Shown: in pieces, positions 1-41,958 of the stretch
Layout: each line of letters starts with the position of its first letter
How positions within the stretch are numbered: position 1 is the first letter of the stretch
From: Escherichia coli
GTDB taxonomy: Bacteria; Pseudomonadota; Gammaproteobacteria; Enterobacterales; Enterobacteriaceae
Reading direction: 5' to 3' (one strand)
Assembly (NCBI GenBank): GCA_005400705.1
Contig: GCA_005400705.1_4079.1
Length of the DNA stretch: 64,000 bases
Program-made: the position numbers and the translations under genes
Notes under the pieces: model-generated
What the model was told of the DNA's origin: nothing
The model's input: the letters and a program-made list of their open reading frames with translations, nothing else
Database searches by the model: none

Positions 1-440
1 TTGTTTTCAGTAAAAATGGCAACATAATATGCGTGGTTAATAACTTGCTTCATCCCAGCATCAATAACTTCCTGTGGAATATGATCAGTAACATCCAACC
101 AATCAAGGTTAGATGATGCAATATCTGGAGTACTGAATTTGTCAAATCTAGTTGAGCCACAAACTAGCACTCTATCATCATTTGTCAAAGCCACTGTGCT
201 AGTCTGCATATTAGAACTGAATGATTTAACATTACTAATGTTAGACTTGTACCAACCCTTATCAGCAGCACCCACCGTGAATCCGGTTCCCATTGATCCA
301 CTTGTACTTGTACCATAAGCCCACATCTCACCACTATATGTTAGTGCCATACAGTGGCTTCCATTTGCTTGGAAATCCTTTATACCAGTGGGAGCAACCA
401 CTGTATTCCCATAATCAAACATTCTAACAAAAGGTAACAT
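1..440 (-). CDS. RCC1-like repeat protein paralog (partial, C-terminus beyond left edge)
   Basis: ATG at 438-440 on minus strand encodes MLPFVRMFDYGN, identical to the four paralogs to the right; frame open to position 1. Confidence 0.6.
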   Translation of the reverse strand, partial: MLPFVRMFDYGNTVVAPTGIKDFQANGSHCMALTYSGEMWAYGTSTSGSMGTGFTVGAADKGWYKSNISNVKSFSSNMQTSTVALTNDDRVLVCGSTRFDKFSTPDIASSNLDWLDVTDHIPQEVIDAGMKQVINHAYYVAIFTEN

Positions 441-473
441 AACTAAAATCTCCATATAATAATTATAATGTAT

Positions 474-511
474 TTACAAAAAAATACCAGTACATATTTC
501 AGTACTGGTAT
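474..511 (-). terminator. Rho-independent terminator downstream of CDS 516-1688
   Basis: Inverted repeat ataccagtac/gtactggtat (484-511) followed on minus strand by a T-run (plus A-run 475-483). Confidence 0.5.
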
Positions 512-515
512 AATG

Positions 516-1688
516 TTATGGTAAAATAATAGCTTGTAACGAACTCATACCCAATGTTGGGACACTCGCCTGTGGTGCTGGTGCATTCACTTTTGGTGAT
601 GAAACCGCATAAGTCATTCCTGTACCCAAATCTGGATCAAAAACTACAGAACAATAATCCCCATTGTATATAAGTCCATTAGTATATCCTTGTGCACTTT
701 GAATGCATTTCGTGAACGTACCAATGTCAGTAGTGGCATTTATTAAGTTCCTCCCACGGTAGCCACAGGTGTATATGAAATTATCAACACCTATGTACAT
801 ACTCGCAGAACCAGAAGAACTACATAGATAAGACATATAAGCACGCATGTTTTTAGGAGCAACTGACAATGTACCAGCATAGAATTTATTATTCATACTC
901 GAAATATCACCATCACCCAAAGCACCAAAACTCCCCCAACCAGTACCATAATATCTCTTATCACTCAAGAATATAATACAGTTGTTATTACACATCTTGA
1001 CTTGATATATCAATGAAGGATCAACCCCAGGGAATGATTCAGTGTATGTTAGAACAGCCAGATCAGTACTAGCATTACATTGATGATATGTATTAGTACC
1101 AGCGGACAATATTGTACCATCAACTAATAGAATCCTCGAAGTGCCAGTACCAGCAATACAAGCAACAGCATTACCTGTATATATTTGTCTGAAAGTAAAG
1201 AAACCAACAGTCTTACTCCCCTGTCCACTCCAACCAGTATTATCAACACCACATGCCCATACTGAACCATCTTGCATGATCATCATTACACCATAGCGTT
1301 CTATCGAAATATAGACAATCTTCGTAGTATCAACTGCACTAAATCTAGAAGTTATATCAGTCCAAACCTTTACACTCACCGCCGTCGCACCGAAAGTAGG
1401 ATCTTCCCCTGCTATCATTATCCTACCATTGTTAGTCAGATACATTGTCTGACTATAACCAGTACTACAAAACTTAACACTATCAGTCTCTGGAACTTTT
1501 AACCACTCGTTGTAACGTGTTACGTTAGTGTTATTACCTAACTGATAATAGTTATTCATCCCAGATACATATAACACACCATCCTTTATTAAACTATAAG
1601 TCGCACTATAGTCACTACAGGTATAACGTGTACCCACAGGTCGCTCAACGACGTTCCCATAATCAAACATTCTAACAAAAGGTAACAT
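516..1688 (-). CDS. RCC1-like repeat (beta-propeller) protein paralog
   Basis: 390 aa ORF; N-terminus MLPFVRMFDYGN; repeated G-x-N-x-x-G-x-LG-x-G-like motifs (YVSGMNNYYQLGNN, YYGTGWGSFGALGDGD); SD upstream. Confidence 0.7.
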   Translation of the reverse strand: MLPFVRMFDYGNVVERPVGTRYTCSDYSATYSLIKDGVLYVSGMNNYYQLGNNTNVTRYNEWLKVPETDSVKFCSTGYSQTMYLTNNGRIMIAGEDPTFGATAVSVKVWTDITSRFSAVDTTKIVYISIERYGVMMIMQDGSVWACGVDNTGWSGQGSKTVGFFTFRQIYTGNAVACIAGTGTSRILLVDGTILSAGTNTYHQCNASTDLAVLTYTESFPGVDPSLIYQVKMCNNNCIIFLSDKRYYGTGWGSFGALGDGDISSMNNKFYAGTLSVAPKNMRAYMSYLCSSSGSASMYIGVDNFIYTCGYRGRNLINATTDIGTFTKCIQSAQGYTNGLIYNGDYCSVVFDPDLGTGMTYAVSSPKVNAPAPQASVPTLGMSSLQAIILP

Positions 1689-1724
1689 AATTAAATCTCC
1701 AAAATTAAAATAATTAGATAGTAT

Positions 1725-1761
1725 TTACAAAAAATACCAGTACATATTTCAGTACTGGTAT
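1725..1761 (-). terminator. Rho-independent terminator downstream of CDS 1769-2911
   Basis: Inverted repeat ataccagtac/gtactggtat with 8 nt loop, T-run on minus strand. Confidence 0.5.
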
Positions 1762-1768
1762 CGTAGCG

Positions 1769-2911
1769 TTAAAATGGCATCTTAACCTCTTTATATACTA
1801 ATATATCACCGGATAAACCAGGAAACGCAGAACCATTACCACATGCATATATAGTACTATCATTCCACACTGCTTGATGGTAATTGCCTATAGTACATTT
1901 ATAATTCGATAAATCAGTCACACCAGGTGTTAGTACATAATATACTGGTCCACTAGGTAAATTAAAATCAAATCTACCAAAGTAGTTCAAACCAGATGAA
2001 TAGGACTTGTCATTAGCAAATATTACAGTACCATCTTCTGTAAAAGAACTGTGAGAAATGTCTTTGAGATTGTTCACAACACCAGACGGTATTGATGTAT
2101 TCAACGTAAAGGACGTCAATGGTGCTGCACTTGGTGTGTTGTTCGCCGTGTAACCATAATATGCATAACCAGCTACATATACACTCGAATCTGAACAAAA
2201 TAAAAATGCACTCCTATAACCCAACCTAATACTCTCTATAGTCTTACTAAAAGTAACTTTAGTAAAGGTAGGAACTAAACCACTATATCCTACCCCACAT
2301 GTACCAAAATCATTCTTCCCAGTACTGTACAATTCGTTATTATTTGTAAGGTAAAATGACGCAGCAGCACCGCTATCTAAAGTACTGTAAACGTCTTTTA
2401 CATTACTCGCAATCAATTTAAATGCACTCAATACGGTAGCCGAACCATTGTTAGACAGCGTTGTTGAATCCGTGCCTTGTCCTATTGTATATAAATCTCC
2501 AGTACTAGTCAAAACAAATATACCATTAGTCGCCATAACAATTCTGTCATTCTTTAAATTAAATGAACTAAAAAGTGTACTTATATCAGTAAAGGTAGTA
2601 TAACGCCCACTCTGCCCTATACTCGATAAATTCCCACTCAAATAAACCTTATTATCATTACCAACAGCTACATAACAACCCCACCCAGCATATATCTGAT
2701 CAATGCCTTGTATCGGTATTTGTAACCATTCACTACCAGTTACCGAAGCAGTACTTCCAGTTCCAAGTTCACCAGAGTTATTAGCTCCGAATACATATAA
2801 ATTCCCACTATCCGATAAAACAACTGTATTACCAACTCCAGTTTTTATATCCTTGATACCATTCTTAGGAGCAACATTCCCATAATCAAACATTCTAACA
2901 AAAGGTAACAT
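1769..2911 (-). CDS. RCC1-like repeat protein paralog
   Basis: 380 aa ORF; N-terminus MLPFVRMFDYGN; motifs YVFGANNSGELGTGS, YLSGNLSSIGQSG; conserved 5' UTR tataatgaataaaggagg upstream. Confidence 0.7.
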   Translation of the reverse strand: MLPFVRMFDYGNVAPKNGIKDIKTGVGNTVVLSDSGNLYVFGANNSGELGTGSTASVTGSEWLQIPIQGIDQIYAGWGCYVAVGNDNKVYLSGNLSSIGQSGRYTTFTDISTLFSSFNLKNDRIVMATNGIFVLTSTGDLYTIGQGTDSTTLSNNGSATVLSAFKLIASNVKDVYSTLDSGAAASFYLTNNNELYSTGKNDFGTCGVGYSGLVPTFTKVTFSKTIESIRLGYRSAFLFCSDSSVYVAGYAYYGYTANNTPSAAPLTSFTLNTSIPSGVVNNLKDISHSSFTEDGTVIFANDKSYSSGLNYFGRFDFNLPSGPVYYVLTPGVTDLSNYKCTIGNYHQAVWNDSTIYACGNGSAFPGLSGDILVYKEVKMPF

Positions 2912-2944
2912 ATTTCCCTCCTTTATTCATTATACTATATTTAA

Positions 2945-2976
2945 TCAAAAAGAAAAGCCAGTACTTGAGTACTGGC
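2945..2976 (-). terminator. Rho-independent terminator downstream of CDS 2984-4111
   Basis: Hairpin gccagtact-tga-gtactggc (2957-2976) followed on minus strand by T-rich run. Confidence 0.5.
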
Positions 2977-2983
2977 ATAGTTT

Positions 2984-4111
2984 TCAAAAAGGTAAATCAA
3001 TTTGCTTAGTAATAATAGTATCTAACGGTATTGAACACAATGAGAAATTCTTTCCACCCGTATTTTCAGGATTATATCCATTCATCCATACATTATTACC
3101 TTCGTAAAATGTATTCCAGTATAAAGCCCCACTATATCGTGTATTCGAATTGAACGATGGAAAGTTGAATTCTTGGAATGATGTAAAATATGGAATGGAA
3201 CTTGAACTACTTCCCGTAAATGGGGTATACCCAGTTGCTATTAGTTTGTTTGTATCTGCATTAATTAAAAATACAACACTAGTCGAATAGTCCAACGAAT
3301 CAGGATGATATATATTACTCATATCACCTATAGTAAAACCAACATCAAAAACTTTACTATGTGCACCACTACCAGCAAAAGTAGTTCCAGTTGCATATAT
3401 TTTATTATCAGATGTTATCATTACAAAACCAGCACCAGAAACAAAACTGCATTTTATATCATAAGATATATCATCAAACAACGGAACAAATGTGGTTGCA
3501 TCACCCGATGTTGCTTTAACTTGAAAGCTGTTATTTGAACCTGAACCATATACAGTTCCATCGTTTTTAATCTTAAACAATGTATCGCCAAGGTAACCGC
3601 CAAATATATTATCCACATTAGTGTCAAGTACAGTCCACGCTGAAACATAATTTTTATGTCCTAAACCTAATGCACCACTTCGATTCCATCCTCTTCCATA
3701 AAGTGTTCCGTCTTTCATTAATATAAATGCTGTATAACCACATAACATTTTTTTAATTTGGGTAACATCTATACCAGTGAAATACACACCCCAGTCAGTA
3801 TATCCTTGTTGGAAAGTATCAGAATTCGTGAATGCATATGTTGAACCTGAACCATATATTTTATCACCTTTAATAACAACGGAAAACAATCCTAACCATA
3901 AGTCATCAACTTCAGTTGTGATTTGTTGAACTGCTCCTAACGATACAAACTGTGTACTTAAACCCGCATTATAGTTTGAATCTTCACCGTGTGCATATAC
4001 AGTGCCATCTTGCATTAGAAACATTTCAAGAGTGTAACTAACAACACTTTTCTTTATATTATTAACTTCGATTATATTCCCATAATCAAACATTCTAACA
4101 AAAGGTAACAT
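2984..4111 (-). CDS. RCC1-like repeat protein paralog
   Basis: 375 aa ORF; N-terminus MLPFVRMFDYGN; motifs YGRGWNRSGALGLGHK, YGSGSNNSFQ. Confidence 0.7.
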   Translation of the reverse strand: MLPFVRMFDYGNIIEVNNIKKSVVSYTLEMFLMQDGTVYAHGEDSNYNAGLSTQFVSLGAVQQITTEVDDLWLGLFSVVIKGDKIYGSGSTYAFTNSDTFQQGYTDWGVYFTGIDVTQIKKMLCGYTAFILMKDGTLYGRGWNRSGALGLGHKNYVSAWTVLDTNVDNIFGGYLGDTLFKIKNDGTVYGSGSNNSFQVKATSGDATTFVPLFDDISYDIKCSFVSGAGFVMITSDNKIYATGTTFAGSGAHSKVFDVGFTIGDMSNIYHPDSLDYSTSVVFLINADTNKLIATGYTPFTGSSSSSIPYFTSFQEFNFPSFNSNTRYSGALYWNTFYEGNNVWMNGYNPENTGGKNFSLCSIPLDTIITKQIDLPF

Positions 4112-4149
4112 AATTCCCTCCTTTATTCATTATACTTTATTTAATACAA

Positions 4150-4177
4150 ATAAGAATTCCTGTATCGAGTACTGGCA
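4150..4177 (-). terminator. Possible weak terminator hairpin downstream of CDS 4184-5332
   Basis: Imperfect inverted repeat gaattcc/ggcattc around AGTACT; less convincing than the other three. Confidence 0.25.
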
Positions 4178-4183
4178 TTCAAT

Positions 4184-5332
4184 TTATTGTAAAAAGGACA
4201 TATCTACTTCTGTATAACTAAGAATGTTTTGACCAGCAATTCCACCCATTACTACTATTGCATACCCACAATAATATAATTTCCCAGTGTCCGTAAGTAT
4301 AAGTGAACCAGAAGGTGTTCTTACCAAATTACACGAACTATTAAAAGAAGTATACGAAGGAGTATAGGAGTACTGATCAATATTATTACCAACACCTAAT
4401 TGACCACCCCTATTCGAACCAGATGCATAAAGTACTTCATCTGCTTTGACAATATGTGATGCCATGTTACCAACACATGCATATACACCATATACCCCTG
4501 TACTCAATAATGTAGGAGTCTTGTATTGAATATCAGTACTAGTAGATGTTCCACCTGTGCCAAATTCATTACCATATTGTGCTCCGTACTGCTTCCCACA
4601 TGCGTACAAATTATTATCGGACTTAATAAAAAATGTACTCTGATAACTTACATCAAAATCTATAACATCCGAAGAAATCATCGTTACCCCAGTAATCGAA
4701 GTTTGATTACCAGTACCCAACTGGTAGTAATAGTTAAAACCACAACCCCATAAAGTATTATCTTCTCGCAAATAAATGTTACCAACAGCCTTTTTAACAG
4801 ATGTTATAGTACTGACCTTCTTGAAGGTATTAAATGAATCAATGTTAGTACCATCTCCAAAGGAGGATATGTTCGATGCGTTATTAGCACCACAACAATA
4901 TAATGTCCCATCCTTCAGTACTAAATTTACCTTCATATCATTAAAACTGCTCATATACTCAATATCAGATACACTAATACCACCTGATGTTATCCACGTA
5001 GTACAGTCCGTCCATAACGTCTTCCTATCAGTTACCCCAGTAAATGCCTCCGTGTTACCAGTGATAAACACTTTACCAGTACCCTTTTCTTCATACAATT
5101 GACAATCACTACTGTTATCTTCCAATAAAACCCTCTGTACATTCTCTGCACAAAGAATAAATTTACTCGATGCTACACCTGTTCCAGTACCCCAATTCGT
5201 CGCAGAAGATGCATACAACTTATGTGTTAGTGTATCATGCAAATACATAGAACCACTAGAATATATTTTAAAACGCCCAGAGTTGGTAGGTGCTTCATTC
5301 CCATAATCAAACATTCTAACAAAAGGTAACAT
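4184..5332 (-). CDS. RCC1-like repeat protein paralog
   Basis: 382 aa ORF; N-terminus MLPFVRMFDYGN; motifs YASGSNRGGQLGVGNN, YACGKQYGAQYGNEFGTG. Confidence 0.7.
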   Translation of the reverse strand: MLPFVRMFDYGNEAPTNSGRFKIYSSGSMYLHDTLTHKLYASSATNWGTGTGVASSKFILCAENVQRVLLEDNSSDCQLYEEKGTGKVFITGNTEAFTGVTDRKTLWTDCTTWITSGGISVSDIEYMSSFNDMKVNLVLKDGTLYCCGANNASNISSFGDGTNIDSFNTFKKVSTITSVKKAVGNIYLREDNTLWGCGFNYYYQLGTGNQTSITGVTMISSDVIDFDVSYQSTFFIKSDNNLYACGKQYGAQYGNEFGTGGTSTSTDIQYKTPTLLSTGVYGVYACVGNMASHIVKADEVLYASGSNRGGQLGVGNNIDQYSYTPSYTSFNSSCNLVRTPSGSLILTDTGKLYYCGYAIVVMGGIAGQNILSYTEVDMSFLQ

Positions 5333-5370
5333 AATTCCCTCCTTTATTCATTATATCATATTTACCCCAT
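5333..5370 (-). promoter_or_regulatory. Conserved 5' UTR/promoter of the RCC1-like gene (tataat plus SD aaggaggg)
   Basis: Minus-strand tataatgaataaaggaggg immediately upstream of ATG; same block precedes the genes ending at 2911 and 4111. Confidence 0.4.
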
Positions 5371-5375
5371 AACCC

Positions 5376-5404
5376 TTGACATCCTTTCAGTACTGGTGTA
5401 CTAT
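5376..5404 (+). promoter_or_regulatory. Sigma70-like promoter for the plus-strand small-gene array
   Basis: TTGACA (5376-5381), 17 nt spacer containing AGTACT, TACTAT (5399-5404); ATG at 5430. Confidence 0.45.
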
Positions 5405-5429
5405 AGAAGGAATATAAGGAGAACTACAC

Positions 5430-5657
5430 ATGACAGCTACACTTAAGTACTACATTAATACTCTAAATGAACTAGAGTACGCGAAGTTTCTCGCGGATTG
5501 TTCGTGGCTAATAGAGCTAAAAACACATAACAGTACTGGATGTAACCTTATGCTGAACAGTGCACTTGATACCCTTGTAGTGAGTATTTTACACAGCAAC
5601 ATCTGCGTGGATAGCAATAAACAATTATCAAAAATCTTAGTACTGGTAGCTATATGA
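5430..5657 (+). CDS. Family A small protein
   Basis: 75 aa; KYYIN near N-terminus, hydrophobic tail ILVLVAI. Confidence 0.55.
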   Translation: MTATLKYYINTLNELEYAKFLADCSWLIELKTHNSTGCNLMLNSALDTLVVSILHSNICVDSNKQLSKILVLVAI

Positions 5658-6065: not shown

Positions 6066-6277
6066 TGAAAACTATGAACATTCATCAGTACTACTTAGAT
6101 ATTCTCCCTAAAGATGTGCAGAACATCCTTAAACAAGAATTCAGTACTTTAAAAAAACCTTAAAAGATCCGCACCGAATGTACTCATCCTGCACCAAATA
6201 AATGTAGTTGATAATATTCTACAAGGTGTACCAGGAACCGAGTACTTTAATATAGTAAGGCTAATTACATTACAATG
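6066..6277 (+). pseudogene. Family A member disrupted by stop/frameshift
   Basis: ATG 6066 gives MKTMNIHQYYLDILP then stop after about 32 aa; family-like C-terminus (YFNIVRLITLQ) continues in another frame to about 6277. Confidence 0.4.
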
Positions 6278-6460
6278 AATCATATAAGCTACTATTACCA
6301 AAAACTATCCGACCGAGACAAGTACAGCCACAACTCCCATGTATGGTACTACAAACGCGGTAGTATAAGGGACAAACAACATTACTTCTGTACTGCTATA
6401 AAAGAAACACTAACAACTAAGTACACGTACAGAGCAGTACTGAAACTTATTGATATGTAA
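6275..6460 (+). CDS. Family A small protein
   Basis: 61 aa; YYYQKL, tail VLKLIDM. Confidence 0.6.
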   Translation: MNHISYYYQKLSDRDKYSHNSHVWYYKRGSIRDKQHYFCTAIKETLTTKYTYRAVLKLIDM

Positions 6461-6470
6461 AGAGAATACT

Positions 6471-6656
6471 ATGAATACATTTGAGTACTATACAAATAAA
6501 CTATCTATGCCAGAAAGATCTCATCTCTATGTGTGGAGAAATGCGTATAAAAGCGGCAATAAACTTATACAAAGAAATTCCCTTACAGTGTGTACAAATT
6601 TAATTAAAGCAGAGTACCGCACATATATTGAAGTACTGAAACTAATCTCTATCTAA
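6471..6656 (+). CDS. Family A small protein
   Basis: Track ORF 6450-6656 trimmed to ATG 6471 (MNTFEYY); tail VLKLISI. Confidence 0.6.
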   Translation: MNTFEYYTNKLSMPERSHLYVWRNAYKSGNKLIQRNSLTVCTNLIKAEYRTYIEVLKLISI

Positions 6657-6664
6657 GGTACTCT

Positions 6665-6844
6665 ATGCAAGAATTCTATATCTATAAACTTCAGCACAAA
6701 GATAGATACAACTATAATAAATTCCAAAGGTACTACACAGTCGGGAACAAAAGAGATAAAAAACGATACTTTCTATCATGTACAGTAGAAGCACAAAACG
6801 AAAAGTACACGTACAGAGAAGTACTGAAACTCATCTCAATCTAA
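6665..6844 (+). CDS. Family A small protein
   Basis: 59 aa, hand-translated (below track cutoff): MQEFYIYKL...REVLKLISI. Confidence 0.55.
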   Translation: MQEFYIYKLQHKDRYNYNKFQRYYTVGNKRDKKRYFLSCTVEAQNEKYTYREVLKLISI

Positions 6845-6852
6845 GGAATAAT

Positions 6853-7032
6853 ATGCAAGAATACTATATAGAACACATAAGCATTAAAGACCGTTTCATG
6901 TACGACACCTTCGTGAAGTACTACAACCTGGCAACTAACAGTACTAAAAATATTAATCTCAATAGCTGCATTCATCACGCACTAACAAAAGATAATCCCT
7001 TCAGGGAAATCCTCGCACTAGCATCTGTATAA
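6853..7032 (+). CDS. Family A small protein
   Basis: Track ORF 6778-7032 trimmed to ATG 6853 (MQEYYIEH); tail ILALASV. Confidence 0.6.
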   Translation: MQEYYIEHISIKDRFMYDTFVKYYNLATNSTKNINLNSCIHHALTKDNPFREILALASV

Positions 7033-7042
7033 AGGAAACCAA

Positions 7043-7702
7043 ATGAAACTTAATGCACACAGCAAACAATACCTTAAGCACTTTAAGTACCTCAACAGTA
7101 TTCAAGCAGAATCTATTACATCTGCATATACGTATCACCCTAATGTACTAAAGAAACGAAATAAAAAGAAAAAATCCAGAAATGTTCTCGTATCTAAGAA
7201 CCTCAAATCGTACTTGAAGAAAAATAATATAGCTCTTGCTTTTATTAATATCTATAATACTGATTTAAAAGTATTGAGTACTAATACCAGCACAAAAGCA
7301 CTAAAGAATGCATCTATCTATATACACATGGATAATATCCCGTGCACTATAATTCTATCTTTCGGGAATGTATACTTCTTCGGGAATTGTAATAGCACCC
7401 ATGATATCAGTACTGCACAATTCCAAATCGGCGATATGTACTGCATGGGTTCAGAAAAAATACACGATAACATGCACTTCTTCCAAAAGCAACGTACTAA
7501 CGAAACTGATACAGTACTGCAATTCCTCAAAGAATTACAAAACAAAGAATTATCCGAGGAAGAAGAATTCATGTACAGTACTGTAATCGATAATCCAGAA
7601 CTCTATAAAAACGCGTACAATCTAACAAAACATGTACAGGAACTTATCAGTACTGATAAGAAATTTCATCACCTCATTACGTATATTTCAAACTATGTAT
7701 AA
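7043..7702 (+). CDS. Hypothetical protein with family C-like motif (EEEFMYSTVID)
   Basis: 219 aa ORF inside the family A array; lysine-rich N-terminal half; C-terminal half has a variant of the family C core. Confidence 0.55.
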   Translation: MKLNAHSKQYLKHFKYLNSIQAESITSAYTYHPNVLKKRNKKKKSRNVLVSKNLKSYLKKNNIALAFINIYNTDLKVLSTNTSTKALKNASIYIHMDNIPCTIILSFGNVYFFGNCNSTHDISTAQFQIGDMYCMGSEKIHDNMHFFQKQRTNETDTVLQFLKELQNKELSEEEEFMYSTVIDNPELYKNAYNLTKHVQELISTDKKFHHLITYISNYV

Positions 7703-7877
7703 AGAATACTACAAAGATAAAATCCCAATGCATCTACAACACCATATACCAAACGTTGCATTGGGTATCAAAGATCACGCAAAGATAATGTTCCAACAAT
7801 GTACTAAGTACACGCTCATATACGATGATAATCCATATATGCTGTACTACGTAGTAATGCTAACATTCAGGTACTAA
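7695..7877 (+). CDS. Family A small protein
   Basis: Track ORF trimmed to ATG 7695 (MYKEYY); tail VVMLTFRY. Confidence 0.6.
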   Translation: MYKEYYKDKIPMHLQHHIPNVALGIKDHAKIMFQQCTKYTLIYDDNPYMLYYVVMLTFRY

Positions 7878-7878
7878 T

Positions 7879-8058
7879 ATGAATACTTATAAAGAATTCT
7901 ACCTCTCGTACCTTAATTCCGATATAGTAACATCCAATACATTCAGTACTAAAATTATCTATAATGAATTAATGAAAGAATGTATTAAAGGTGCTATTAA
8001 CCCTAAAGATACGTATGACTTGTACTATGCAGTACTAACCCTTGTTTTCACGAAATAA
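7879..8058 (+). CDS. Family A small protein
   Basis: 59 aa hand-translated: MNTYKEFYLSYL...YAVLTLVFTK. Confidence 0.55.
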   Translation: MNTYKEFYLSYLNSDIVTSNTFSTKIIYNELMKECIKGAINPKDTYDLYYAVLTLVFTK

Positions 8059-8066
8059 CACATAAT

Positions 8067-8258
8067 ATGAATAACCACAAAGAATACTACATAGAGAAAC
8101 TCCCAATGTATCTCCAACACCTTGTACCAACAGAACCATTGGGTATAGAAAAAAACTACGAAAAAGACTACTTCATTCAGTGCACTAAATCCTCGATATA
8201 TATTGAAGACTATAATCGAGTACTGTATCACATCCTTTTACTAATATATAGGTACTAA
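8067..8258 (+). CDS. Family A small protein
   Basis: 63 aa; MNNHKEYYIEKLP, tail ILLLIYRY. Confidence 0.65.
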   Translation: MNNHKEYYIEKLPMYLQHLVPTEPLGIEKNYEKDYFIQCTKSSIYIEDYNRVLYHILLLIYRY

Positions 8259-8259
8259 T

Positions 8260-8442
8260 ATGCACAAAGAATACTACACACAATTTCTCCCCAGCATTTT
8301 TGAACACTACGCCAGATACAAAGTCCCTATGGATAACGATTTGGCAGTACTGGGATTCAATAACTGCATAGAACGAAGTATAGAAAATAGTAGTAGTTAT
8401 GACCAGCTATATAACACTATCCTACTTATATTCAGGTACTAA
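8260..8442 (+). CDS. Family A small protein
   Basis: 60 aa; MHKEYYTQFLP, tail ILLIFRY. Confidence 0.65.
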   Translation: MHKEYYTQFLPSIFEHYARYKVPMDNDLAVLGFNNCIERSIENSSSYDQLYNTILLIFRY

Positions 8443-8443
8443 T

Positions 8444-8629
8444 ATGCATAAAGAATACTACACACAATTTGTTAAAGGGAACTACAAACATGCCGTACCC
8501 AGAACCCCTTTAAATTCTCATGACCCAAGTACTATATTCTTGTTTAATGACGCAATACGTACAGTACTCAATACTAAAGATGAAGATGTGCAGTACGTAT
8601 TCTTACTATTACTTATATACAGACACTAA
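8444..8629 (+). CDS. Family A small protein
   Basis: Track ORF trimmed to ATG 8444 (MHKEYYTQF); tail LLLLIYRH. Confidence 0.65.
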   Translation: MHKEYYTQFVKGNYKHAVPRTPLNSHDPSTIFLFNDAIRTVLNTKDEDVQYVFLLLLIYRH

Positions 8630-8634
8630 CTAAT

Positions 8635-8844
8635 ATGAATAAAGAACATAAAGAATTCTACTCCAAATACATAAGCCCCTCAGAACAAATGTTTCTAAGG
8701 ACTACTCCACCTTTAAGTACTAATACATTTTTCGGCAGAGTATGCTACAATAATTGTATTCAAATGACTTTAAACGCAAACGAAGATGGTAACAGTACTA
8801 ACCTGTACTCAGGTATCATAGGTATACTATTCCTGTATGAATAA
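8635..8844 (+). CDS. Family A small protein
   Basis: 69 aa; MNKEHKEFY, tail IGILFLYE. Confidence 0.6.
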   Translation: MNKEHKEFYSKYISPSEQMFLRTTPPLSTNTFFGRVCYNNCIQMTLNANEDGNSTNLYSGIIGILFLYE

Positions 8845-9025
8845 TTACAAAGACTTCTATTTGAATACACTACCTACTGTACTTTCTCTAAGTGCTCAAT
8901 GTAAAATCCCGCTGGATAATGCTTACGCCAGATATAGCTATTCCATAACTGTTAATCGATGTATAGAGAATCATTGCAGTACTAACCAGTACTATAACAT
9001 AATCCTACTTATATTCAGGTACTAA
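8837..9025 (+). CDS. Family A small protein
   Basis: 62 aa; MNNYKDFY, tail IILLIFRY. Confidence 0.65.
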   Translation: MNNYKDFYLNTLPTVLSLSAQCKIPLDNAYARYSYSITVNRCIENHCSTNQYYNIILLIFRY

Positions 9026-9026
9026 T

Positions 9027-9209
9027 ATGAATAAAGAACATAAAGAATTCTATATACGAAAACTAACATTCGTCCCCGTAAGAATATATAAAGAATGCGA
9101 CCCAAGATTATACCTATGGCACTTCAATGAGTGCATAAAAGATTCTATATACCATAAGAACTATAAAGAACAATTGTGCTCAGTACTAACACTAGTACTA
9201 TCATATTAA
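9027..9209 (+). CDS. Family A small protein
   Basis: 60 aa; MNKEHKEFY, tail LTLVLSY. Confidence 0.6.
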   Translation: MNKEHKEFYIRKLTFVPVRIYKECDPRLYLWHFNECIKDSIYHKNYKEQLCSVLTLVLSY

Positions 9210-9224
9210 TTAATAGAGAATACT

Positions 9225-9416
9225 ATGTATAAAAACTTCTATATAAGTAAACTAAAAGAAAATGAACAAGTATGGATTAGATCTATAATTCCACTGGCAT
9301 TTAATAGATATGCATTTAACAGATGTACCGAGATTGCTATAGACCCTTATAATATTAAAGAGAATGTACAGTATAATCAGTACTACTATATCTTAATGCT
9401 TATATATAGAAAGTAA
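9225..9416 (+). CDS. Family A small protein
   Basis: 63 aa; MYKNFYISKL, tail ILMLIYRK. Confidence 0.6.
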   Translation: MYKNFYISKLKENEQVWIRSIIPLAFNRYAFNRCTEIAIDPYNIKENVQYNQYYYILMLIYRK

Positions 9417-29750: not shown

Positions 29751-29780
29751 ATGATTGATAATAATTTTAAGGGAGTCCCT

Positions 29781-29978
29781 GTGCGTATTTTAACTCAAGC
29801 AGAACACCACGAAAGACTTATCAATAACATGGCTATGATAATGTATAAGTCCCATGAACGTGGTATTGCCTATAAGCGTGAATTAGTACTGGAACTATTC
29901 ATTGGAACTAACTTTCAGGAAAGGTATGTCAACGATTGGATTTGGTATTTAATTGAAGATATAACGAGTAAACTATGA
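29781..29978 (+). CDS. Family B small protein
   Basis: Track ORF 29751-29978; start moved to GTG 29781 after SD aagggag because ATG 29751 abuts the -10; core IGTNFQERYV. Confidence 0.5.
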   Translation: MRILTQAEHHERLINNMAMIMYKSHERGIAYKRELVLELFIGTNFQERYVNDWIWYLIEDITSKL

Positions 29979-30169
29979 TAATTTTAACTAAAAAAGAATA
30001 TCAAGAACTGTTACGTAAAAACTACGTAAAGATTTACAATACAGACACACACGTAGAACGAATGGAGTTATACCTTTTGATTACATTGGGAACTAACTAT
30101 CAGGAAAGATGGGTGATTCAATATATGGATACATTGAAAAATAAAATATTGTCCACGAGGAAACAATGA
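29975..30169 (+). CDS. Family B small protein
   Basis: 64 aa; core LGTNYQERWV. Confidence 0.65.
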   Translation: MIILTKKEYQELLRKNYVKIYNTDTHVERMELYLLITLGTNYQERWVIQYMDTLKNKILSTRKQ

Positions 30170-30375
30170 AAATCATAACACACAGACAAGCATTGGGTCG
30201 TATGGTGAAGTATCTTGAATTGATGGTGTCTATACCAAAGAGCTTACCAAAAACTGAAAGAGCGATACATTCAGCAGAGTATCGTCTGTTAGCAGTACTG
30301 AATACTAACTACCAAGATGAATATGTTGACGATTGGATTCTATCATTAATAGAAGATATAAAGAGTAAACTATGA
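30166..30375 (+). CDS. Family B small protein
   Basis: 69 aa; core LNTNYQDEYV. Confidence 0.65.
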   Translation: MKIITHRQALGRMVKYLELMVSIPKSLPKTERAIHSAEYRLLAVLNTNYQDEYVDDWILSLIEDIKSKL

Positions 30376-30584
30376 TTTTTTTAACACCAGAAGAATATAA
30401 GATACGTTTTGTTTCTGTCCAGAATAAAATCTTAATTATATACAATTCAAATGCAGACCTTAACTTATCAAGGGTATTAGAAAAAGATTTACTTATGGGT
30501 GCATTTTTGGATACAGACTTTCAGGAGTATTATGTAGGGGAATACTTAATTGCACTCAAGAATTATATTAAGAGTAAACTATGA
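30372..30584 (+). CDS. Family B small protein
   Basis: 70 aa; core LDTDFQEYYV. Confidence 0.65.
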   Translation: MIFLTPEEYKIRFVSVQNKILIIYNSNADLNLSRVLEKDLLMGAFLDTDFQEYYVGEYLIALKNYIKSKL

Positions 30585-30796
30585 ATATCATTGCAAACTC
30601 AAATCAATATACCGAACGCGTCGCTGCAAGACAACTTGAAATTCTCATAGTATACGAAGAGACTTCTGATTTAAACTTAGCCGAGGTATTGGAAAATGAT
30701 ATACTATTGGGTGCATTCCTCGGCACAGACTATCAGGAGCACTTCTTGAATGAGTATATAATTGCACTCCAGAAATACATTAAGAGCAAACTATGA
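30581..30796 (+). CDS. Family B small protein
   Basis: 71 aa; core LGTDYQEHFL. Confidence 0.65.
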   Translation: MNIIANSNQYTERVAARQLEILIVYEETSDLNLAEVLENDILLGAFLGTDYQEHFLNEYIIALQKYIKSKL

Positions 30797-31029
30797 AACA
30801 TTTAAGTAATTCCGAGAAGAATAAAATTATCGTTGCTGCAATAAACAAATATTTTACACTTCCTCACACAGAAGGTTTATGTGTAAGAGAACACAGGATA
30901 AACACCACCGATATACGCATGATGGCTGTACTGGGGACTAACTTTCAGAAGGAGTATGTTGATGCACACATTACCGCACTGATGAACTTTATAATGGGAA
31001 AGGTAAATGAAACACTTAACACTAGATGA
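30793..31029 (+). CDS. Family B small protein
   Basis: 78 aa; core LGTNFQKEYV. Confidence 0.65.
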   Translation: MKHLSNSEKNKIIVAAINKYFTLPHTEGLCVREHRINTTDIRMMAVLGTNFQKEYVDAHITALMNFIMGKVNETLNTR

Positions 31030-31264
31030 ATATGAAACTATAGTCCGTAAACTAACCCCTATAGCAAGGATAGTCTACGATGACCCCAGCCTTACATGGA
31101 ACCAAATGCGAGCTAAAGTTAATGAGCTATGGTTGCTGTACTTTATGGGAACGCAATATCAAGATAAGTTTTGCACAGAATATGTCGAACAATTAATGAA
31201 TGTTATACAGGATAAACTAGATGATTATTGGCTCGCAAAACATGAAGACTTTATCAGGAGTTGA
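31007..31264 (+). CDS. Family B small protein
   Basis: 85 aa; core MGTQYQDKFC. Confidence 0.6.
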   Translation: MKHLTLDEYETIVRKLTPIARIVYDDPSLTWNQMRAKVNELWLLYFMGTQYQDKFCTEYVEQLMNVIQDKLDDYWLAKHEDFIRS

Positions 31265-31493
31265 GTATCAAACTGCCCTATTCTCTTTAATCCATACCCT
31301 TAGAAAAAACAATGCCTTACATGGTGCACCTGAAGTGGATGTTATCAACGGTGAACTTTATCTGATGAAATTCATTGGAACAAACTATCAAGATCTGTTC
31401 ATTCAACGATACCTATCAGCATTAAGAAACCAAATCCAATATAAAACCATCAAGGCCAAAAAAGAATGGAATAAACAATGCGACACAGACTAA
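31221..31493 (+). CDS. Family B small protein (start uncertain, 31221 or 31242)
   Basis: core IGTNYQDLFI. Confidence 0.55.
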   Translation: MIIGSQNMKTLSGVEYQTALFSLIHTLRKNNALHGAPEVDVINGELYLMKFIGTNYQDLFIQRYLSALRNQIQYKTIKAKKEWNKQCDTD

Positions 31494-31729
31494 ATCACAA
31501 AATGTATTGTAAACTATTGCAGACACTGGCACAGAAACACTATGACACGGTATCTGAAATATTACCCTATGATATCATGCGTTTACTTCACTGTGAGGCC
31601 GAGATGCTTGTACTGATGACAGGCACAGATAAAAAAGCAATTGCCAAATCAATAGATATGTTCATCGAAGCACAATGTCAACACATTAGAACCGAGATAT
31701 GGAGGCGAGAGAATGATAACCCTAAATGA
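31478..31729 (+). CDS. Family B-like small protein (degenerate core)
   Basis: 83 aa; core TGTDKKAIAK. Confidence 0.5.
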   Translation: MRHRLNHKMYCKLLQTLAQKHYDTVSEILPYDIMRLLHCEAEMLVLMTGTDKKAIAKSIDMFIEAQCQHIRTEIWRRENDNPK

Positions 31730-31928
31730 GTATCAGTATCATTGGAGGTTACAAGCTATAAGAAGGAAAGTTGTTAGTATTTCTTTAGACAAGTCTATTG
31801 CACAAGAGGACAAATGTGTTATAATAGCTGAAATGAAGTTGGGTGTTTTCGTAGGGACAAACTATCAAAACATCTACACTGACGTATTGTTAAGTGTCTT
31901 ACGTAACAAGGTGATATCAAAAGAATGA
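31713..31928 (+). CDS. Family B small protein
   Basis: 71 aa; core VGTNYQNIYT. Confidence 0.65.
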   Translation: MITLNEYQYHWRLQAIRRKVVSISLDKSIAQEDKCVIIAEMKLGVFVGTNYQNIYTDVLLSVLRNKVISKE

Positions 31929-32143
31929 GAAAATTACAAGGCTTTGAATACATCAGGCTCCTGAAAACATGTGGCAGCAGAAGGAGAATGATATCAAGCG
32001 ATAAGAGCATCTCTATTGACCTGAAGCACGCAATGAAAGCTGAACTCTATGTAGGAGCACTATTGGGGACAAACTATCAACAAATGTATGTAGACCTATG
32101 GATTGATGCATTAGTCAAGGAGGTCCAAAGTAAATGCAAATGA
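31925..32143 (+). CDS. Family B small protein
   Basis: 72 aa; core LGTNYQQMYV. Confidence 0.65.
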   Translation: MRKLQGFEYIRLLKTCGSRRRMISSDKSISIDLKHAMKAELYVGALLGTNYQQMYVDLWIDALVKEVQSKCK

Positions 32144-32352
32144 TTAATTTAAGTAAAGATGAATTTTATGTTCTACTGGCGAAAACTTATTCATTACGCA
32201 AGGCCGTTTATGATAGTCACATTATTGAACCAACAAAGAAGTTGATTTTAGTATCTGAGATAAAGATGCTTTCAGTCTTAGGAACAAACTACCAAGAGAA
32301 TGCTGTACTGTTGTTAATTGATGCCCTCAAGAGAGAGATACAAAGTAAATGA
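32134..32352 (+). CDS. Family B small protein
   Basis: 72 aa; core LGTNYQENAV. Confidence 0.65.
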   Translation: MQMINLSKDEFYVLLAKTYSLRKAVYDSHIIEPTKKLILVSEIKMLSVLGTNYQENAVLLLIDALKREIQSK

Positions 32353-32588
32353 TTCATTTATCTTACCATGATTATCAAAAACGTTTAAATGCATCAAGGG
32401 ATATAAGAATTCAAATCTTCAATAACAAAAAATTGAAACCTGACACCAGAAGAATCAAAATAATCGAAGCAGAGTTATGCAACTTCCTGGGGACGAACTA
32501 TCAGGCAGGTAAGGTAAAAAACTATCTTAGAGAACTCATGAATTGTATCGAAAATAAATGCGATGCTTTGGAGGATAAAAATGATTAA
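32349..32588 (+). CDS. Family B small protein
   Basis: 79 aa; core LGTNYQAGKV. Confidence 0.65.
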   Translation: MIHLSYHDYQKRLNASRDIRIQIFNNKKLKPDTRRIKIIEAELCNFLGTNYQAGKVKNYLRELMNCIENKCDALEDKND

Positions 32589-32838
32589 TTTAAATTCTGA
32601 TGAATATCATGAACGCATGGCTAAAATCTCAACTAAACGAAATGAAATCTATCACAACCCAGAAATTCAACACAGTAAGAAAATGATTATGATGCGTGAG
32701 TTAAAGTTGGGTGTATTCTTAGGAACAAACTATCAAGAACCAGAGGTCCAACGCGTATTAAATGAATTACTAATGGAAATCAGAGGTAAGCTTTACTTTC
32801 ATCAAATGACCCAACCACTGAGGTGTACTGTGAAATGA
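32581..32838 (+). CDS. Family B small protein
   Basis: Track ORF trimmed to ATG 32581 after SD ggagga; core LGTNYQEPEV. Confidence 0.65.
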   Translation: MINLNSDEYHERMAKISTKRNEIYHNPEIQHSKKMIMMRELKLGVFLGTNYQEPEVQRVLNELLMEIRGKLYFHQMTQPLRCTVK

Positions 32839-33050
32839 TCAACATCACATTACAAGAAAGATTCATCCGAATCAACTATGCAATTTCCAAATTAGATGCT
32901 ACAATAGGATTTCAAAGTCTACCGTTCAAAACCAGAATGATATTAGAGTGCGAAGCCAGGTTAGGTGTACTGTTAGGGACGCAACACCAACAACGATATG
33001 TGGAAATCTGGATTGATCTTTTAACCCAAAATGCACATGAGAGAATGTAA
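32835..33050 (+). CDS. Family B small protein
   Basis: Track start 32823 is GTG; ATG 32835 overlaps previous stop; core LGTQHQQRYV. Confidence 0.6.
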   Translation: MINITLQERFIRINYAISKLDATIGFQSLPFKTRMILECEARLGVLLGTQHQQRYVEIWIDLLTQNAHERM

Positions 33051-33281
33051 ATGCAAAATGAAATGATATACTTAACACATGATGAATTTCAAGAGAAGAT
33101 GTTAAAAGCCAATAACATTACTCTTAAGTTCGTTCCAAATCAATCAATATATGAAATGTCTGCGAATGTATTGTTTGAGAAGCTACCATACGTTCTTGGA
33201 ACTGATAAACAAGAATTTATGGTTCAAAATATGATTGAGCATCTTGCAATGAGTATTATGGAAAAAGTAAATGCAAAATGA
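33051..33281 (+). CDS. Family B small protein
   Basis: 76 aa; core LGTDKQEFMV. Confidence 0.6.
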   Translation: MQNEMIYLTHDEFQEKMLKANNITLKFVPNQSIYEMSANVLFEKLPYVLGTDKQEFMVQNMIEHLAMSIMEKVNAK

Positions 33282-33531
33282 AATGAAATACTTAACATAT
33301 AATGAATACGTCGAGAGATTAGTTAGTGCCAAGAGATATGCCAATCAACTTCCTAATGATCCAAACCAAACCCCAGAGGAAAAGAATGCGGAAGCTCTAT
33401 TCCAAGCACTACCATACCTTCTTGGAACTGATAGGCAGGAGTATCACGTTGAACGTATAATTAAATCTCTTAAAATCACTATTAAGGAAAAAGTAAATGC
33501 AAAAGGAAATGATATACTTAACAGACGATGA
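33271..33531 (+). CDS. Family B small protein
   Basis: 86 aa; core LGTDRQEYHV. Confidence 0.6.
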   Translation: MQNEMKYLTYNEYVERLVSAKRYANQLPNDPNQTPEEKNAEALFQALPYLLGTDRQEYHVERIIKSLKITIKEKVNAKGNDILNRR

Positions 33532-33754
33532 GTTAAAAGAACGATTAATTAAATCCAGAAAACTTACAAATCAACTTCCAAACGACACAAACAAGTCACC
33601 TGCCGAAAGGAGTGCAGAAGTTTTATACATTCAACTCATGTACTTTCTTGGAACTGACAGACAAGAGTATTACATTGAAAGTATGCTTCGATATCTTAAA
33701 TTCTCTATAAAGGAAAAGATACATGCTCAAGAATTTAAAAATCCTAACAGCTAA
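33497..33754 (+). CDS. Family B small protein
   Basis: 85 aa; core LGTDRQEYYI. Confidence 0.6.
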   Translation: MQKEMIYLTDDELKERLIKSRKLTNQLPNDTNKSPAERSAEVLYIQLMYFLGTDRQEYYIESMLRYLKFSIKEKIHAQEFKNPNS

Positions 33755-33980
33755 TGAATATCATAAGATTGTAATGGAAACTAATAGTGCTTACGCTAAA
33801 AAATCAAACCCAAAGTATATACTGGAACACACATTTGAAGAACGTCAATTAGCTCTAGTTGAAGCAAAACTTCTTGCACTATTAGGAACAAACTATCAGG
33901 AAGAATACAATAGAAAACTAATATACCTTTTAACTAAACACATCAGGAAAAGAAAAAAGCATGAAACACTTGACAGATGA
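33723..33980 (+). CDS. Family B small protein
   Basis: 85 aa; core LGTNYQEEYN. Confidence 0.6.
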   Translation: MLKNLKILTANEYHKIVMETNSAYAKKSNPKYILEHTFEERQLALVEAKLLALLGTNYQEEYNRKLIYLLTKHIRKRKKHETLDR

Positions 33981-34191
33981 TGAACATGGGCTTATAGTAA
34001 TGGATGTAATCAACATCGAATTCAAAAAGTTGATACGCTACCGTTGTTATGAAGATAAGCAACTCGTTCTAGCAGAACAGAAGTTGTTTCGACTCTTAAA
34101 CACAAACTACCAAGCACAATACGAAGAATCGTATATGTACCTTTTGGCGAGGAAAGCAAAAAGAGATTATGAAAATTTTAAGCCACGATAA
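33961..34191 (+). CDS. Family B small protein
   Basis: 76 aa; core LNTNYQAQYE. Confidence 0.6.
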   Translation: MKHLTDDEHGLIVMDVINIEFKKLIRYRCYEDKQLVLAEQKLFRLLNTNYQAQYEESYMYLLARKAKRDYENFKPR

Positions 34192-34384
34192 ACAAACAGA
34201 ATTGTTAATCTTTAATACAAGTAAATTCTTAAACATAACATTGTCTGATATAGATGAGGATGAAAAAGAGTTACTTAGAGCAGATTTAAGAGTTCTTTTA
34301 TATATTGGAACTAACTTCCAAGAGCAATTCGTTGAGGACTACATCGATGAACTTAAAGAATCTGTACTGAGAACATGCAAATGA
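34169..34384 (+). CDS. Family B small protein
   Basis: 71 aa; core IGTNFQEQFV. Confidence 0.65.
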   Translation: MKILSHDKQTELLIFNTSKFLNITLSDIDEDEKELLRADLRVLLYIGTNFQEQFVEDYIDELKESVLRTCK

Positions 34385-34626
34385 AAATCCTTTCACCAAG
34401 TGAATACCACGAACTATTAAGTAGTTTAATTCTAAAATTGTATATAGCAAAGACCACAGATTTACCAGATGAAGAAAAAAATATTCTAATGAGTGAAATC
34501 TATGTTAATTCTACCCTAGGGACTAACTATCAAGAATGTAATATTAATGATTACATCAAAGAACTAAAAAGGTTTATCCAATGCAAATGCGAATCATTAC
34601 CGGAGAAGAATACCGAACAATCATAA
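34375..34626 (+). CDS. Family B small protein
   Basis: 83 aa; core LGTNYQECNI. Confidence 0.65.
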   Translation: MQMKILSPSEYHELLSSLILKLYIAKTTDLPDEEKNILMSEIYVNSTLGTNYQECNINDYIKELKRFIQCKCESLPEKNTEQS

Positions 34627-34823
34627 ATGGACTGTTTTTGAAGTTATTTGCCATTAACACATCAAAACTACCAGATACGGATAAAATTATTAAGTTAAAT
34701 GAAATCTACGTTCAAGCAACTCTAGGAACTAACTATCAAGAAGCCAATGTTTATAATTACATTAATACACTTAAAAGGGTAATACAATTAAAATGCACAG
34801 ACAGCACATACACAAACCCCTAG
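34581..34823 (+). CDS. Family B small protein
   Basis: 80 aa; core LGTNYQEANV. Confidence 0.65.
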   Translation: MQMRIITGEEYRTIINGLFLKLFAINTSKLPDTDKIIKLNEIYVQATLGTNYQEANVYNYINTLKRVIQLKCTDSTYTNP

Positions 34824-36028: not shown

Positions 36029-36040
36029 GAGTACTGATAT

Positions 36041-36256: not shown

Positions 36257-36262
36257 CAGTAC

Positions 36263-36291: not shown

Positions 36292-36320
36292 GCATCAACG
36301 TTAATCATAGGGTACAGATT

Positions 36321-41957: not shown

Positions 41958-41958
41958 T

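Follow-up and report, generated by a model that had tools for sequence, protein, structure and literature searches.

Tandem arrays of genes named 'DNA condensation protein' are known from several jumbo phages, namely gp549-gp010 of phAPEC6, 121Q_234-248, the corresponding genes of PBECO4, genes 535-550 of Munch, and GAP32_001, and their products belong to the protein family PHROG 4219. Published accounts of these arrays describe them as duplicated DNA-condensation genes. Here, we analyse a locus of the same family at the beginning of a 64,000-nucleotide (nt) stretch of DNA, called the window below, which is deposited under Escherichia coli (assembly GCA_005400705.1, contig GCA_005400705.1_4079.1). 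The five genes of the locus start with an identical 12-residue peptide, hereafter the tag, and continue into bodies that differ widely from one another. On balance, it appears somewhat probable that the tag is a flexible peptide for docking, by which all array proteins are held at a single acceptor site of the virion.

The bodies of the array proteins resemble the propellers of RCC1, UVR8, RPGR, HERC1 and HERC2 (PF00415, PF13540, PF25390). The RCC1-like domain of these eukaryotic proteins has seven blades and a GxNxxGQLG signature that is found in the window proteins also. Unlike the eukaryotic RCC1-type proteins, to which they are ~18% identical, the window proteins consist of a single domain behind a phage-specific N-terminal tag, and their relatives are virion components. 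The partners of eukaryotic RCC1, Ran and chromatin, do not exist in bacteria. The label 'DNA condensation' or 'chromosome condensation' is a name transferred from eukaryotic RCC1; nothing was found in its support, and Pfam scans of the window proteins returned no DNA-binding domain.

Based on its sequence, the window is part of an Asteriusvirus-like (121Q/phAPEC6) jumbo coliphage. Its DNA matches the Asteriusvirus jumbo coliphages EJP2, vB_Ec-M-J, EC.P1, Turkey5, fEgEco12, phAPEC6, 121Q and PBECO4 in patches, at 86-97% identity. The array occupies positions 1-5332, where the list of open reading frames (ORFs) and their translations give four complete minus-strand ORFs and a fifth that is truncated at the window start. 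The array's first gene, g1 (4184-5332, 382 amino acids, aa), adjoins a divergent early region, and the flanks are syntenic in EJP2, Munch and Hallingskeid. It is followed by g2 (2984-4111, 375 aa), g3 (1769-2911, 380 aa), g4 (516-1688, 390 aa) and g5 (2-440), of which the first 146 codons lie inside the window edge; all are on the minus strand and encode RCC1-like proteins. Related genomes have the homologous genes in tandem, in arrays of 11-16 members that are annotated 'regulator of chromosome condensation' or 'DNA condensation protein'; what the window holds is therefore only the beginning of an array, its first five genes.

Past codon 12, the pairwise identity among the five proteins is just 20-27%. 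All five contain GxNxxGxLGxG motifs and exceed the Pfam gathering score for RCC1, RCC1_2 or both. For example, g4 is above threshold for RCC1 (26.7 bits) as well as RCC1_2 (24.2 bits), while g2 (30.9 bits, cut-off 22) and g5 (31.8 bits) are recognised by RCC1_2 only. The window proteins also match phrog_4219 over their full length, with E-values from 8e-43 (g2) to 1e-107. Four of the genes have close orthologues, with nucleotide identities of 80-97% for g1, g2, g4 and g5. At the protein level the orthologues of g1 are 82-96% identical to it, with a ratio of nonsynonymous to synonymous substitution rates (dN/dS) of 0.10-0.18, and EcMJ_583 is 97% identical to g2. EJP2_505 is 96.6% identical to g4 in nucleotides, and g5 is 97% identical in nucleotides to the start of EJP2_510 (376 aa). 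Compared with the known arrays, g3 is a rare cassette without a close relative among GenBank phages, its best match there being 34.5% identical in amino acids; its sole 97% relative is P0001, a short sequencing-run assembly. Among the more diverged pairs the array bodies are under purifying selection (dN/dS 0.10-0.22); they belong to working genes and not to duplicates in decay.

The tag is encoded in all five genes by an identical 35-nt sequence, ATGTTACCTTTTGTTAGAATGTTTGATTATGGGAA, which gives the peptide MLPFVRMFDYGN. It occupies codons 1-12, at positions 5297-5332 in g1, 4076-4111 in g2, 2876-2911 in g3, 1653-1688 in g4 and 405-440 in g5, all on the minus strand. The window has five exact matches of this sequence and 100 shuffled versions have none. 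An identical N-terminus on five divergent RCC1-like bodies is what the first-pass annotation of this DNA had reported, and both parts of that description hold. By inspection, MLPFVRMFDYGN and the proline-rich linker that follows it have neither the hydrophobic core nor the lipobox cysteine of a Sec, Tat or lipoprotein signal peptide.

Across the family the tag takes the form M-[LI]-P-F-x-R-[MIL]-h-x-Y-G-N, where h is a hydrophobic residue, and all five window genes match it. The same motif starts the array genes of phAPEC6, EJP2, Munch (from Salmonella), Hallingskeid (Erwinia), CBB (Pectobacterium) and GAP32 (Cronobacter). In these six phages, it is present on every annotated RCC1-like array gene and also on the Kelch, lectin-like and glycine-rich genes interspersed among them; the exceptions within the arrays are short ORFs outside the family (phAPEC6 gp004 and gp008) and phAPEC6 gp002, whose start is misplaced. 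In 121 members of RCC1 size, the tag carries 3.5 bits of information per column, as against 1.5 in the rest of the protein and 2.25 in the best other stretch of 12 columns, where some tag positions such as P3 and F4 were predetermined by the search pattern with which the members had been gathered and the annotated array genes independently show the same conservation. R6, Y10, G11 and N12, for which the collecting pattern permitted alternatives, are conserved at 93-99% across host genera and unrelated bodies.

The tag occurs in 17 different nucleotide versions in Munch, 10 in Hallingskeid and 9 in CBB, so that each copy has its own codons. It follows from these codon differences that selection acts on the tag peptide, and the nucleotide-identical tag in the window is best described as a local homogenisation. 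Tags are also alike within a genome in their variable residues: MFD is typical of the window, MVK of phAPEC6 and 121Q, IL of Munch, and MI[QK] of Hallingskeid. This likeness fits gene conversion, co-adaptation of the tags to a genome-specific partner, or both.

The tag motif was found in 61 of 50,697 GenBank phage records, all of them jumbo phages of 310-386 kb that have 1-16 copies each. Between phages that do not differ in genome size, tagged genes can number anything from 1 to 17. The hosts of these phages are Escherichia, Salmonella, Erwinia, Yersinia, Cronobacter, Serratia, Pectobacterium, Klebsiella aerogenes and Xanthomonas. Nine contigs, 348-378 kb long, are the only ones in IMG/VR that have the tag. 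When 1.84 billion representative proteins were searched with a profile, 15 matches were obtained, of which 12 lie at or near residue 1 and three are internal repeat-like stretches. No PDB entry contains the tag sequence, and no solved structure of a phage RCC1-like protein was found. As far as these collections reach, the tag is restricted to one clade, the Rak2-like jumbo phages.

Existing annotations count tagged genes incompletely. The phAPEC6 record (MK817115.1) omits three tag-bearing ORFs (369, 396 and 244 aa), and the annotated start of gp002 lies 108 nt too early, the tag-bearing ATG being at 3614; the sites concerned are 2434, 3614, 6063 and 7325. phAPEC6 has about 14-15 tagged genes as compared with the 11 reported. 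GAP32 has at least three, not one.

What the tag is attached to was examined by structure prediction and by domain searches. The AlphaFold models of g1 (predicted local distance difference test, pLDDT, 92.3; predicted template modelling score, pTM, 0.88) and g3 (pLDDT 76.6, pTM 0.81) each have seven four-stranded blades, and in both the C-terminal strand closes the propeller ring. In Foldseek comparisons, the template modelling score is 0.80-0.83 to UVR8 and 0.67-0.73 to RCC1, RPGR and HERC2. The models are single globular propellers (the proteins being 375-390 aa long) and contain no fibre or coiled-coil segment. At the N-terminus, pLDDT falls below 50 only in residues 1-16 of g1 and 1-14 of g3, that is, in the tag and linker. 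Since these residues are unstructured and the ring is closed by the C-terminal strand, the tag is placed outside the propeller.

When the tag was removed from 177 unique tagged ORFs, the majority of the remaining bodies were RCC1-like propellers. The others are Kelch propellers (Pfam E-values 1e-27 to 1e-30), groups of concanavalin A-like lectins (with Laminin_G_3 above threshold in several), glycine-rich domains, one fusion of RCC1 and Kelch, and a few unassigned all-beta bodies. The fusion is the sole two-domain member seen, a 676-aa protein encoded at +1903 of IMGVR_UViG_3300031414_000001 (L026), in which the tag is followed by an RCC1-like and then a Kelch propeller. In three metagenome sequences (L043 at +238, L045 at +5323 and L053 at -1541), there is a tagged body of 243-245 aa without a Pfam match, with conserved YKEVYEKGMVWG, GRGRF and WWP motifs in this order, which represents another, uncharacterised type of module. 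No enzymatic body was found behind the tag in the searches of IMG/VR, metagenomes and the 1.84 billion proteins, which returned the same clade and all-beta binder folds only.

Relatives of the window proteins are found in virions. In phAPEC6, eight RCC1-like array proteins were detected together in virions by mass spectrometry, with 1-5 peptides each, and the authors speculated that they have a DNA-organising or inner-body role, proposing them as a component of the inner-body rod (PMC7247149). In CBB, seven of the proteins CBB_536, 537 and 548-554 are listed among the structural proteins detected by mass spectrometry (PMC5259590); we find that all nine begin with the tag. In GAP32, the RCC1-like GAP32_001 was found by mass spectrometry and the lectin-like GAP32_002 bears the database annotation 'virion structural protein', and both are tagged. 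Because RCC1-like and lectin-like virion proteins both carry it, what the virion-associated members have in common is the tag and not the fold. Hairy appendages are also known from these phages; those of CBB are ~119 nm long, and similar ones are seen in phAPEC6 and fEgEco12.

A comparable arrangement, of the kind in which sets of several receptor-binding proteins have conserved N-terminal anchors, exists in RaK2, which belongs to the sister genus Alcyoneusvirus. Its gp526-534 are likewise an array of virion proteins with common N-termini and variable bodies. In the RaK2 sequence (NC_019526.1, positions 22765-45683), the tail-fibre and spike genes fall into two groups, each with its own conserved N-terminus: gp526, 527, 529 and 530 start M.N.LIQPKGS.S.E (M.N.LIQPKGSVSKE..), gp532-534 start MSL..L..SN (MSLSNLSSSN..), and gp531 has a similar start (LSNL..TN) after a four-residue extension. 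Unlike the window array, RaK2 has no MLPF tag, and its bodies are 570-1113 aa long and annotated as tail fibres or tail proteins, in contrast to the small single domains of the array; the scan of GenBank phage records also gave no tag match in RaK2. A positional equivalence of the two loci was considered and rejected, as no synteny was detected between the flanks of the RaK2 and Asteriusvirus arrays and the N-terminal motifs differ.

Array genes are exchanged as whole cassettes. Homology between the window and its relatives always breaks within a junction module of ~110 nt, at 1692, 1757, 2875/6 or 4074, positions that are tag edges or hairpins. For example, the match to Turkey5 covers 1-1692 and breaks at the g4 start codon; homology to three metagenome contigs (L042, L050 and L065) ends there too and resumes at 2876, at the end of the g3 tag. 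vB_Ec-M-J matches 1-1757 and 2875-5338, so that its homology also resumes at the 3' end of the g3 tag (2875/2876), and the g3 body between hairpin and tag is replaced by a paralogue at 27% identity. EC.P1 matches 1-1757 and 4074-5600, with g3 and g2 both replaced, and the g2 tag is a recombination boundary against phAPEC6 as well. In EJP2, the 97% matches of g5 and g4, which are neighbours in the window, are 5 kb apart. These breakpoints are partly built in, the junction being the only sequence that paralogues have in common, which weakens them as evidence for the docking interpretation; even with this bias, the comparisons show that exchange proceeds in whole-gene units.

As compared with one another, tag and body give discordant histories. 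Between g1 and EcMJ_584, the body has a synonymous divergence (dS) of 0.57 and the tag has 1 of 36 nt changed. Between g4 and EJP2_505, body dS is 0.016 and 4 of 36 tag nucleotides are changed. In g3 and its 97% relative P0001, the tags differ in 5 of 12 residues and the bodies in 6 of 368.

Modular shuffling around short conserved junctions has a precedent in T4-type phages, where PeSL cassettes, made of promoter and stem-loop elements, mediate it. As in PeSL cassettes, short conserved promoter and hairpin junctions flank the variable genes of the array and serve as recombination sites. Unlike in PeSL cassettes, the array junction reaches 36 nt into coding sequence and its promoter boxes are of the late and not the early type.

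The leaders and terminators that make up the rest of the junction are of more than one kind. g1, g2 and g3 have a common leader, GTATAATGAATAAAGGAGGGAAnT (class 1, as in phAPEC6), at 5333-5364, 4112-4143 and 2912-2943, respectively; the g2 leader is near-identical to the other two, and that of g1 has TAAATA at 5359-5364, TATAAT at 5350-5355 and GGAG at 5339-5342. g4 and g5 share another leader, TTGGAGATTTAATT / TATGGAGATTTTAGTT (class 2, as in EJP2), at 1689-1727, with TAAATA at 1722-1727 and GGAG at 1697-1700, and at 441-476. Thus, of the single Shine-Dalgarno and -10 block that the first-pass annotation had assigned to every gene, all five genes have two elements in common, the GGAG and a TAAATA that precedes the ATG by 26-33 nt, while the leader as a whole is uniform in g1-g3 and different in g4 and g5. 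The array combines leaders of two types in a mosaic and has, nevertheless, one homogenised tag throughout.

The TAAATA boxes are a partial match to (T)ATAAATA, which precedes the head and tail genes of phAPEC6, a phage with genes for a late sigma factor similar to gp55 and for a prohead scaffold/protease similar to gp21 of T4. Late expression of the array genes is therefore plausible.

Terminator-like hairpins with CCAGTAC/GTACTGG stems and a T-run follow g2, g3 and g4, with z-scores of -4.1 to -4.7 against shuffled sequence. The one after g2 (2957-2976, minus strand) reads GCCAGTACTCAAGTACTGGC before its T-run and has a folding energy of -14.2 kcal/mol (z -4.3); the one after g3 (1733-1762) has z -4.7 and is also the recombination boundary at 1757/1758, and the one after g4 (484-511) has z -4.1. 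The claim that each gene has its own hairpin fails for g1, which is followed by a degenerate remnant (4150-4176, GCCAGTACTCGATACAGG) with a non-significant z of -1.2, 24 of 200 shuffles folding equally well; since the 3' end of g5 is outside the window, four hairpins could be assessed. Read on the plus strand, the hairpins at 484-511 and 1733-1762 end in CAGTACTGGTATAAT, a potential TGn-TATAAT extended -10 that points antisense into the preceding gene.

The palindrome CCAGTACTG, from which the array terminator stems are built, had been taken for an element of the array genes. It is not specific to them: 32 copies of CCAGTACTG(G) are present in the window, where 0.34 would be expected (at 12835, 12971, 14908, 20779, 5376-5404 and 27 other sites). 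At several sites it fills the spacer of a TTGACA-N17-(C/T)ATAAT promoter, with TGG directly before the -10 box as in an extended -10. The copy upstream of g1 lies in such a spacer, in the sigma-70-like promoter of the divergent early genes (5376-5404, plus strand; TTGACA-17-TACTAT). CCAGTACTG may be a binding site, or a building block common to promoters and terminators.

Taken together, the following mechanism may be proposed. The locus is the start of a hypervariable tandem array of Rak2-like jumbo phages in which each gene is its own unit. Such a unit has a late-promoter-like TAAATA, a Shine-Dalgarno sequence and the 12 codons of the tag, then a short linker that is often rich in proline, a single globular binding domain of all-beta fold and, in most cases, a terminator as well. 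The tag would dock the array proteins to a common acceptor, probably as an added beta-strand or as a groove-bound peptide, and the particle would in this way carry a mixed panel of binding modules. Our best guess is that the modules face outward, attached to the hair-like fibres or to the decorations, and that they bind ligands there as adhesins or as an accessory means of host recognition. The tag, leader and terminator junctions also act as homology arms, through which phages exchange entire cassettes and the tags of one genome become homogenised.

External display is favoured because all bodies are binder-type all-beta folds, and because bacterial propeller homologues have partner domains for secretion, the cell surface and carbohydrate binding; they carry type IX secretion system (T9SS) sorting, dockerin, MucBP, discoidin and Big_5 domains. 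It is also favoured because other phages (PollyC, P0003) fuse RCC1 propellers to tail-fibre N-termini, because tagged-gene copy number is so variable at equal genome size, and because phAPEC6, CBB and fEgEco12 bear hairs or decorations that are unexplained.

A docking or targeting peptide on swappable propellers had been suggested by the first-pass annotation, and this idea withstood each of the tests made of it: the predicted propellers are confident, with the tag as their only low-confidence segment, the tag is portable between folds, relatives of the proteins are located in virions, and recombination boundaries fall at the tag in related phages. The docking step itself is deduced. The same annotation saw the bodies as alternatives to one another, but they look more like a co-displayed panel than like mutually exclusive proteins. 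The co-detection of eight RCC1-like array proteins in phAPEC6 virions speaks against its refuting condition, that only one copy is ever expressed.

Several points weigh against docking and external display. The docking of the tag and its acceptor are putative, and the virion data come from relatives (phAPEC6, CBB and GAP32) and not from the window phage. Mass-spectrometry coverage of the phAPEC6 proteins is low (1-5 peptides), and the authors of that work preferred a role inside the particle, in the inner body. A low pLDDT is a weak argument for disorder. Propellers and lectin folds are also common as intracellular protein-protein interaction modules, and high cassette turnover is equally compatible with injected anti-defence proteins. 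Finally, the late promoter that TAAATA partially matches was deduced from a handful of phAPEC6 upstream regions.

A broader form of the docking proposal, which we hold tentatively and consider a little less probable than its opposite, is that the tag is a portable virion address. Any domain that bears MLPFxRhhxYGN and a short linker would be loaded on one acceptor of the 350-kb phage's particle, and the array would be a stock of at least a dozen unrelated lectin-like and propeller binders that recombine and pass between genomes cassette by cassette, with the tag co-evolving with the acceptor. Encapsulin cargo-loading peptides of bacterial nanocompartments, which are C-terminal, may serve as an analogy, as in them a short terminal peptide likewise addresses diverse cargo to one site of an HK97-fold particle. 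The array tag differs from them in its position and its sequence, and no evolutionary link is implied.

The alternative that survives best is drawn from T4, where the internal proteins IPI, IPII and IPIII, as well as Alt, have an N-terminal capsid-targeting peptide and where the internal-protein loci of T-even phages are polymorphic. The array tag could be such a capsid-targeting sequence, and the array proteins would then reside in the inner body, organise DNA, or be injected as polymorphic anti-defence or host-takeover proteins. The parallels are real: in both systems an N-terminal peptide of ~10-12 residues stands on unrelated, polymorphic virion proteins that are encoded as single cassettes, with their own promoters and terminators, and recombine at conserved flanks. 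In addition, the virion association of the relatives, the gp21-like prohead scaffold/protease of phAPEC6 and the inner-body rod in which its authors tentatively placed the RCC1-like proteins all agree with an internal location, and a fast turnover of cassettes is what an arms race against host defences would lead one to expect. However, the T4 likeness breaks down in the tag itself, which has no conserved Glu or cleavage motif (hydrophobic-x-Glu) at positions 9-20; no column has Glu in more than 25 of the 177 sequences, and positions 13-20 are variable. The bodies differ too, being rigid all-beta binders of 25-45 kDa with no enzyme among them, not small basic proteins or enzymes, and their bacterial relatives are found in extracellular contexts. 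A copy number of 1-17 at equal genome size would be odd for a core internal structure, and no DNA-binding feature was found beneath the 'condensation' name. We therefore consider targeting to the head interior unlikely. If the tag does target the head interior, it would be the first such signal for this phage group, and the array would be a large polymorphic set of injected proteins.

A second alternative is that the tag belongs to the architecture of the proteins themselves, either as the strand that closes the propeller or as a donated strand that polymerises subunits into hairs like beads on a string. The tag alternates conserved hydrophobic or aromatic residues (L2, F4, R6, h8, Y10) in the manner of an edge beta-strand, the RCC1-type members have a common C-terminal h-x-h-x-L-P-[FW] strand, and hairs are seen on CBB and, in similar form, on phAPEC6 and fEgEco12. 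Against this, both models complete seven four-stranded blades and leave the tag out, and the tag is also found on Kelch, lectin and glycine-rich folds, which have no acceptor motif in common. A closing ('velcro') strand is rejected on account of the C-terminal closure and unstructured residues 1-16 and 1-14 of the g1 and g3 models together with the non-propeller tagged folds. As a whole, we find this alternative quite improbable, and the idea that a donated tag strand strings modules into the phAPEC6 and CBB hairs is more speculative than docking.

It is least credible of all, and very improbable indeed, that the tag is conserved as DNA or RNA only, as a recombination or gene-conversion tract or as a region for translation initiation that stayed with the leader when the genes were serially duplicated: the window tags are identical in 35 of 35 nt including all synonymous sites, recombination boundaries coincide with them, and tags are homogenised within genomes, but every copy in Munch, Hallingskeid and CBB encodes the same residues by different codons, which leads us to reject the idea for the family, R6, Y10, G11 and N12 persist at 93-99% across host genera and unrelated bodies, and the same tag stands behind two different leaders in the window.

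Other parts of the window also contain tandem families. On the plus strand, the regions 29751-49751 and 44254-54748 hold tandem paralogue families, one of 23 ORFs of 63-91 aa and others of seven members (146-164 aa) and five members (113-162 aa). Small paralogue families at 6275-9416 (plus strand) have products ending in ..LLIFRY. No tRNA gene was detected when the window was scanned for them.

Earlier publications already cover the gene family, its arrays and its occurrence in virions. In the literature searched, we found no earlier description of the tag, of its occurrence on unrelated folds in virion-associated proteins, or of its dual role as a recombination arm, and no mention of the motif or of its presence on the interspersed 'unrelated hypothetical proteins'; the Sharanji paper has nothing on the array genes. 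Two literature matches that seemed to tie RCC1 to phage tail fibres were false positives, caused by strain numbers of culture collections and by locus tags of Rhodobacter.

If the tag is a docking peptide, it would account for up to ~5% of a jumbo-phage genome that is spent on arrays mislabelled 'DNA condensation proteins', and the 'unrelated hypothetical proteins' within the arrays would be members of the same system. As to the hairs and decorations on these particles, which are unexplained, the array proteins would be candidate components. The tag would also provide a very short, fold-independent handle by which foreign proteins could be loaded on a large phage, for display or retargeting. 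Finally, it would show, in a clean natural case, how a coding sequence can serve as a recombination arm at the same time, with tag and body having separate histories.

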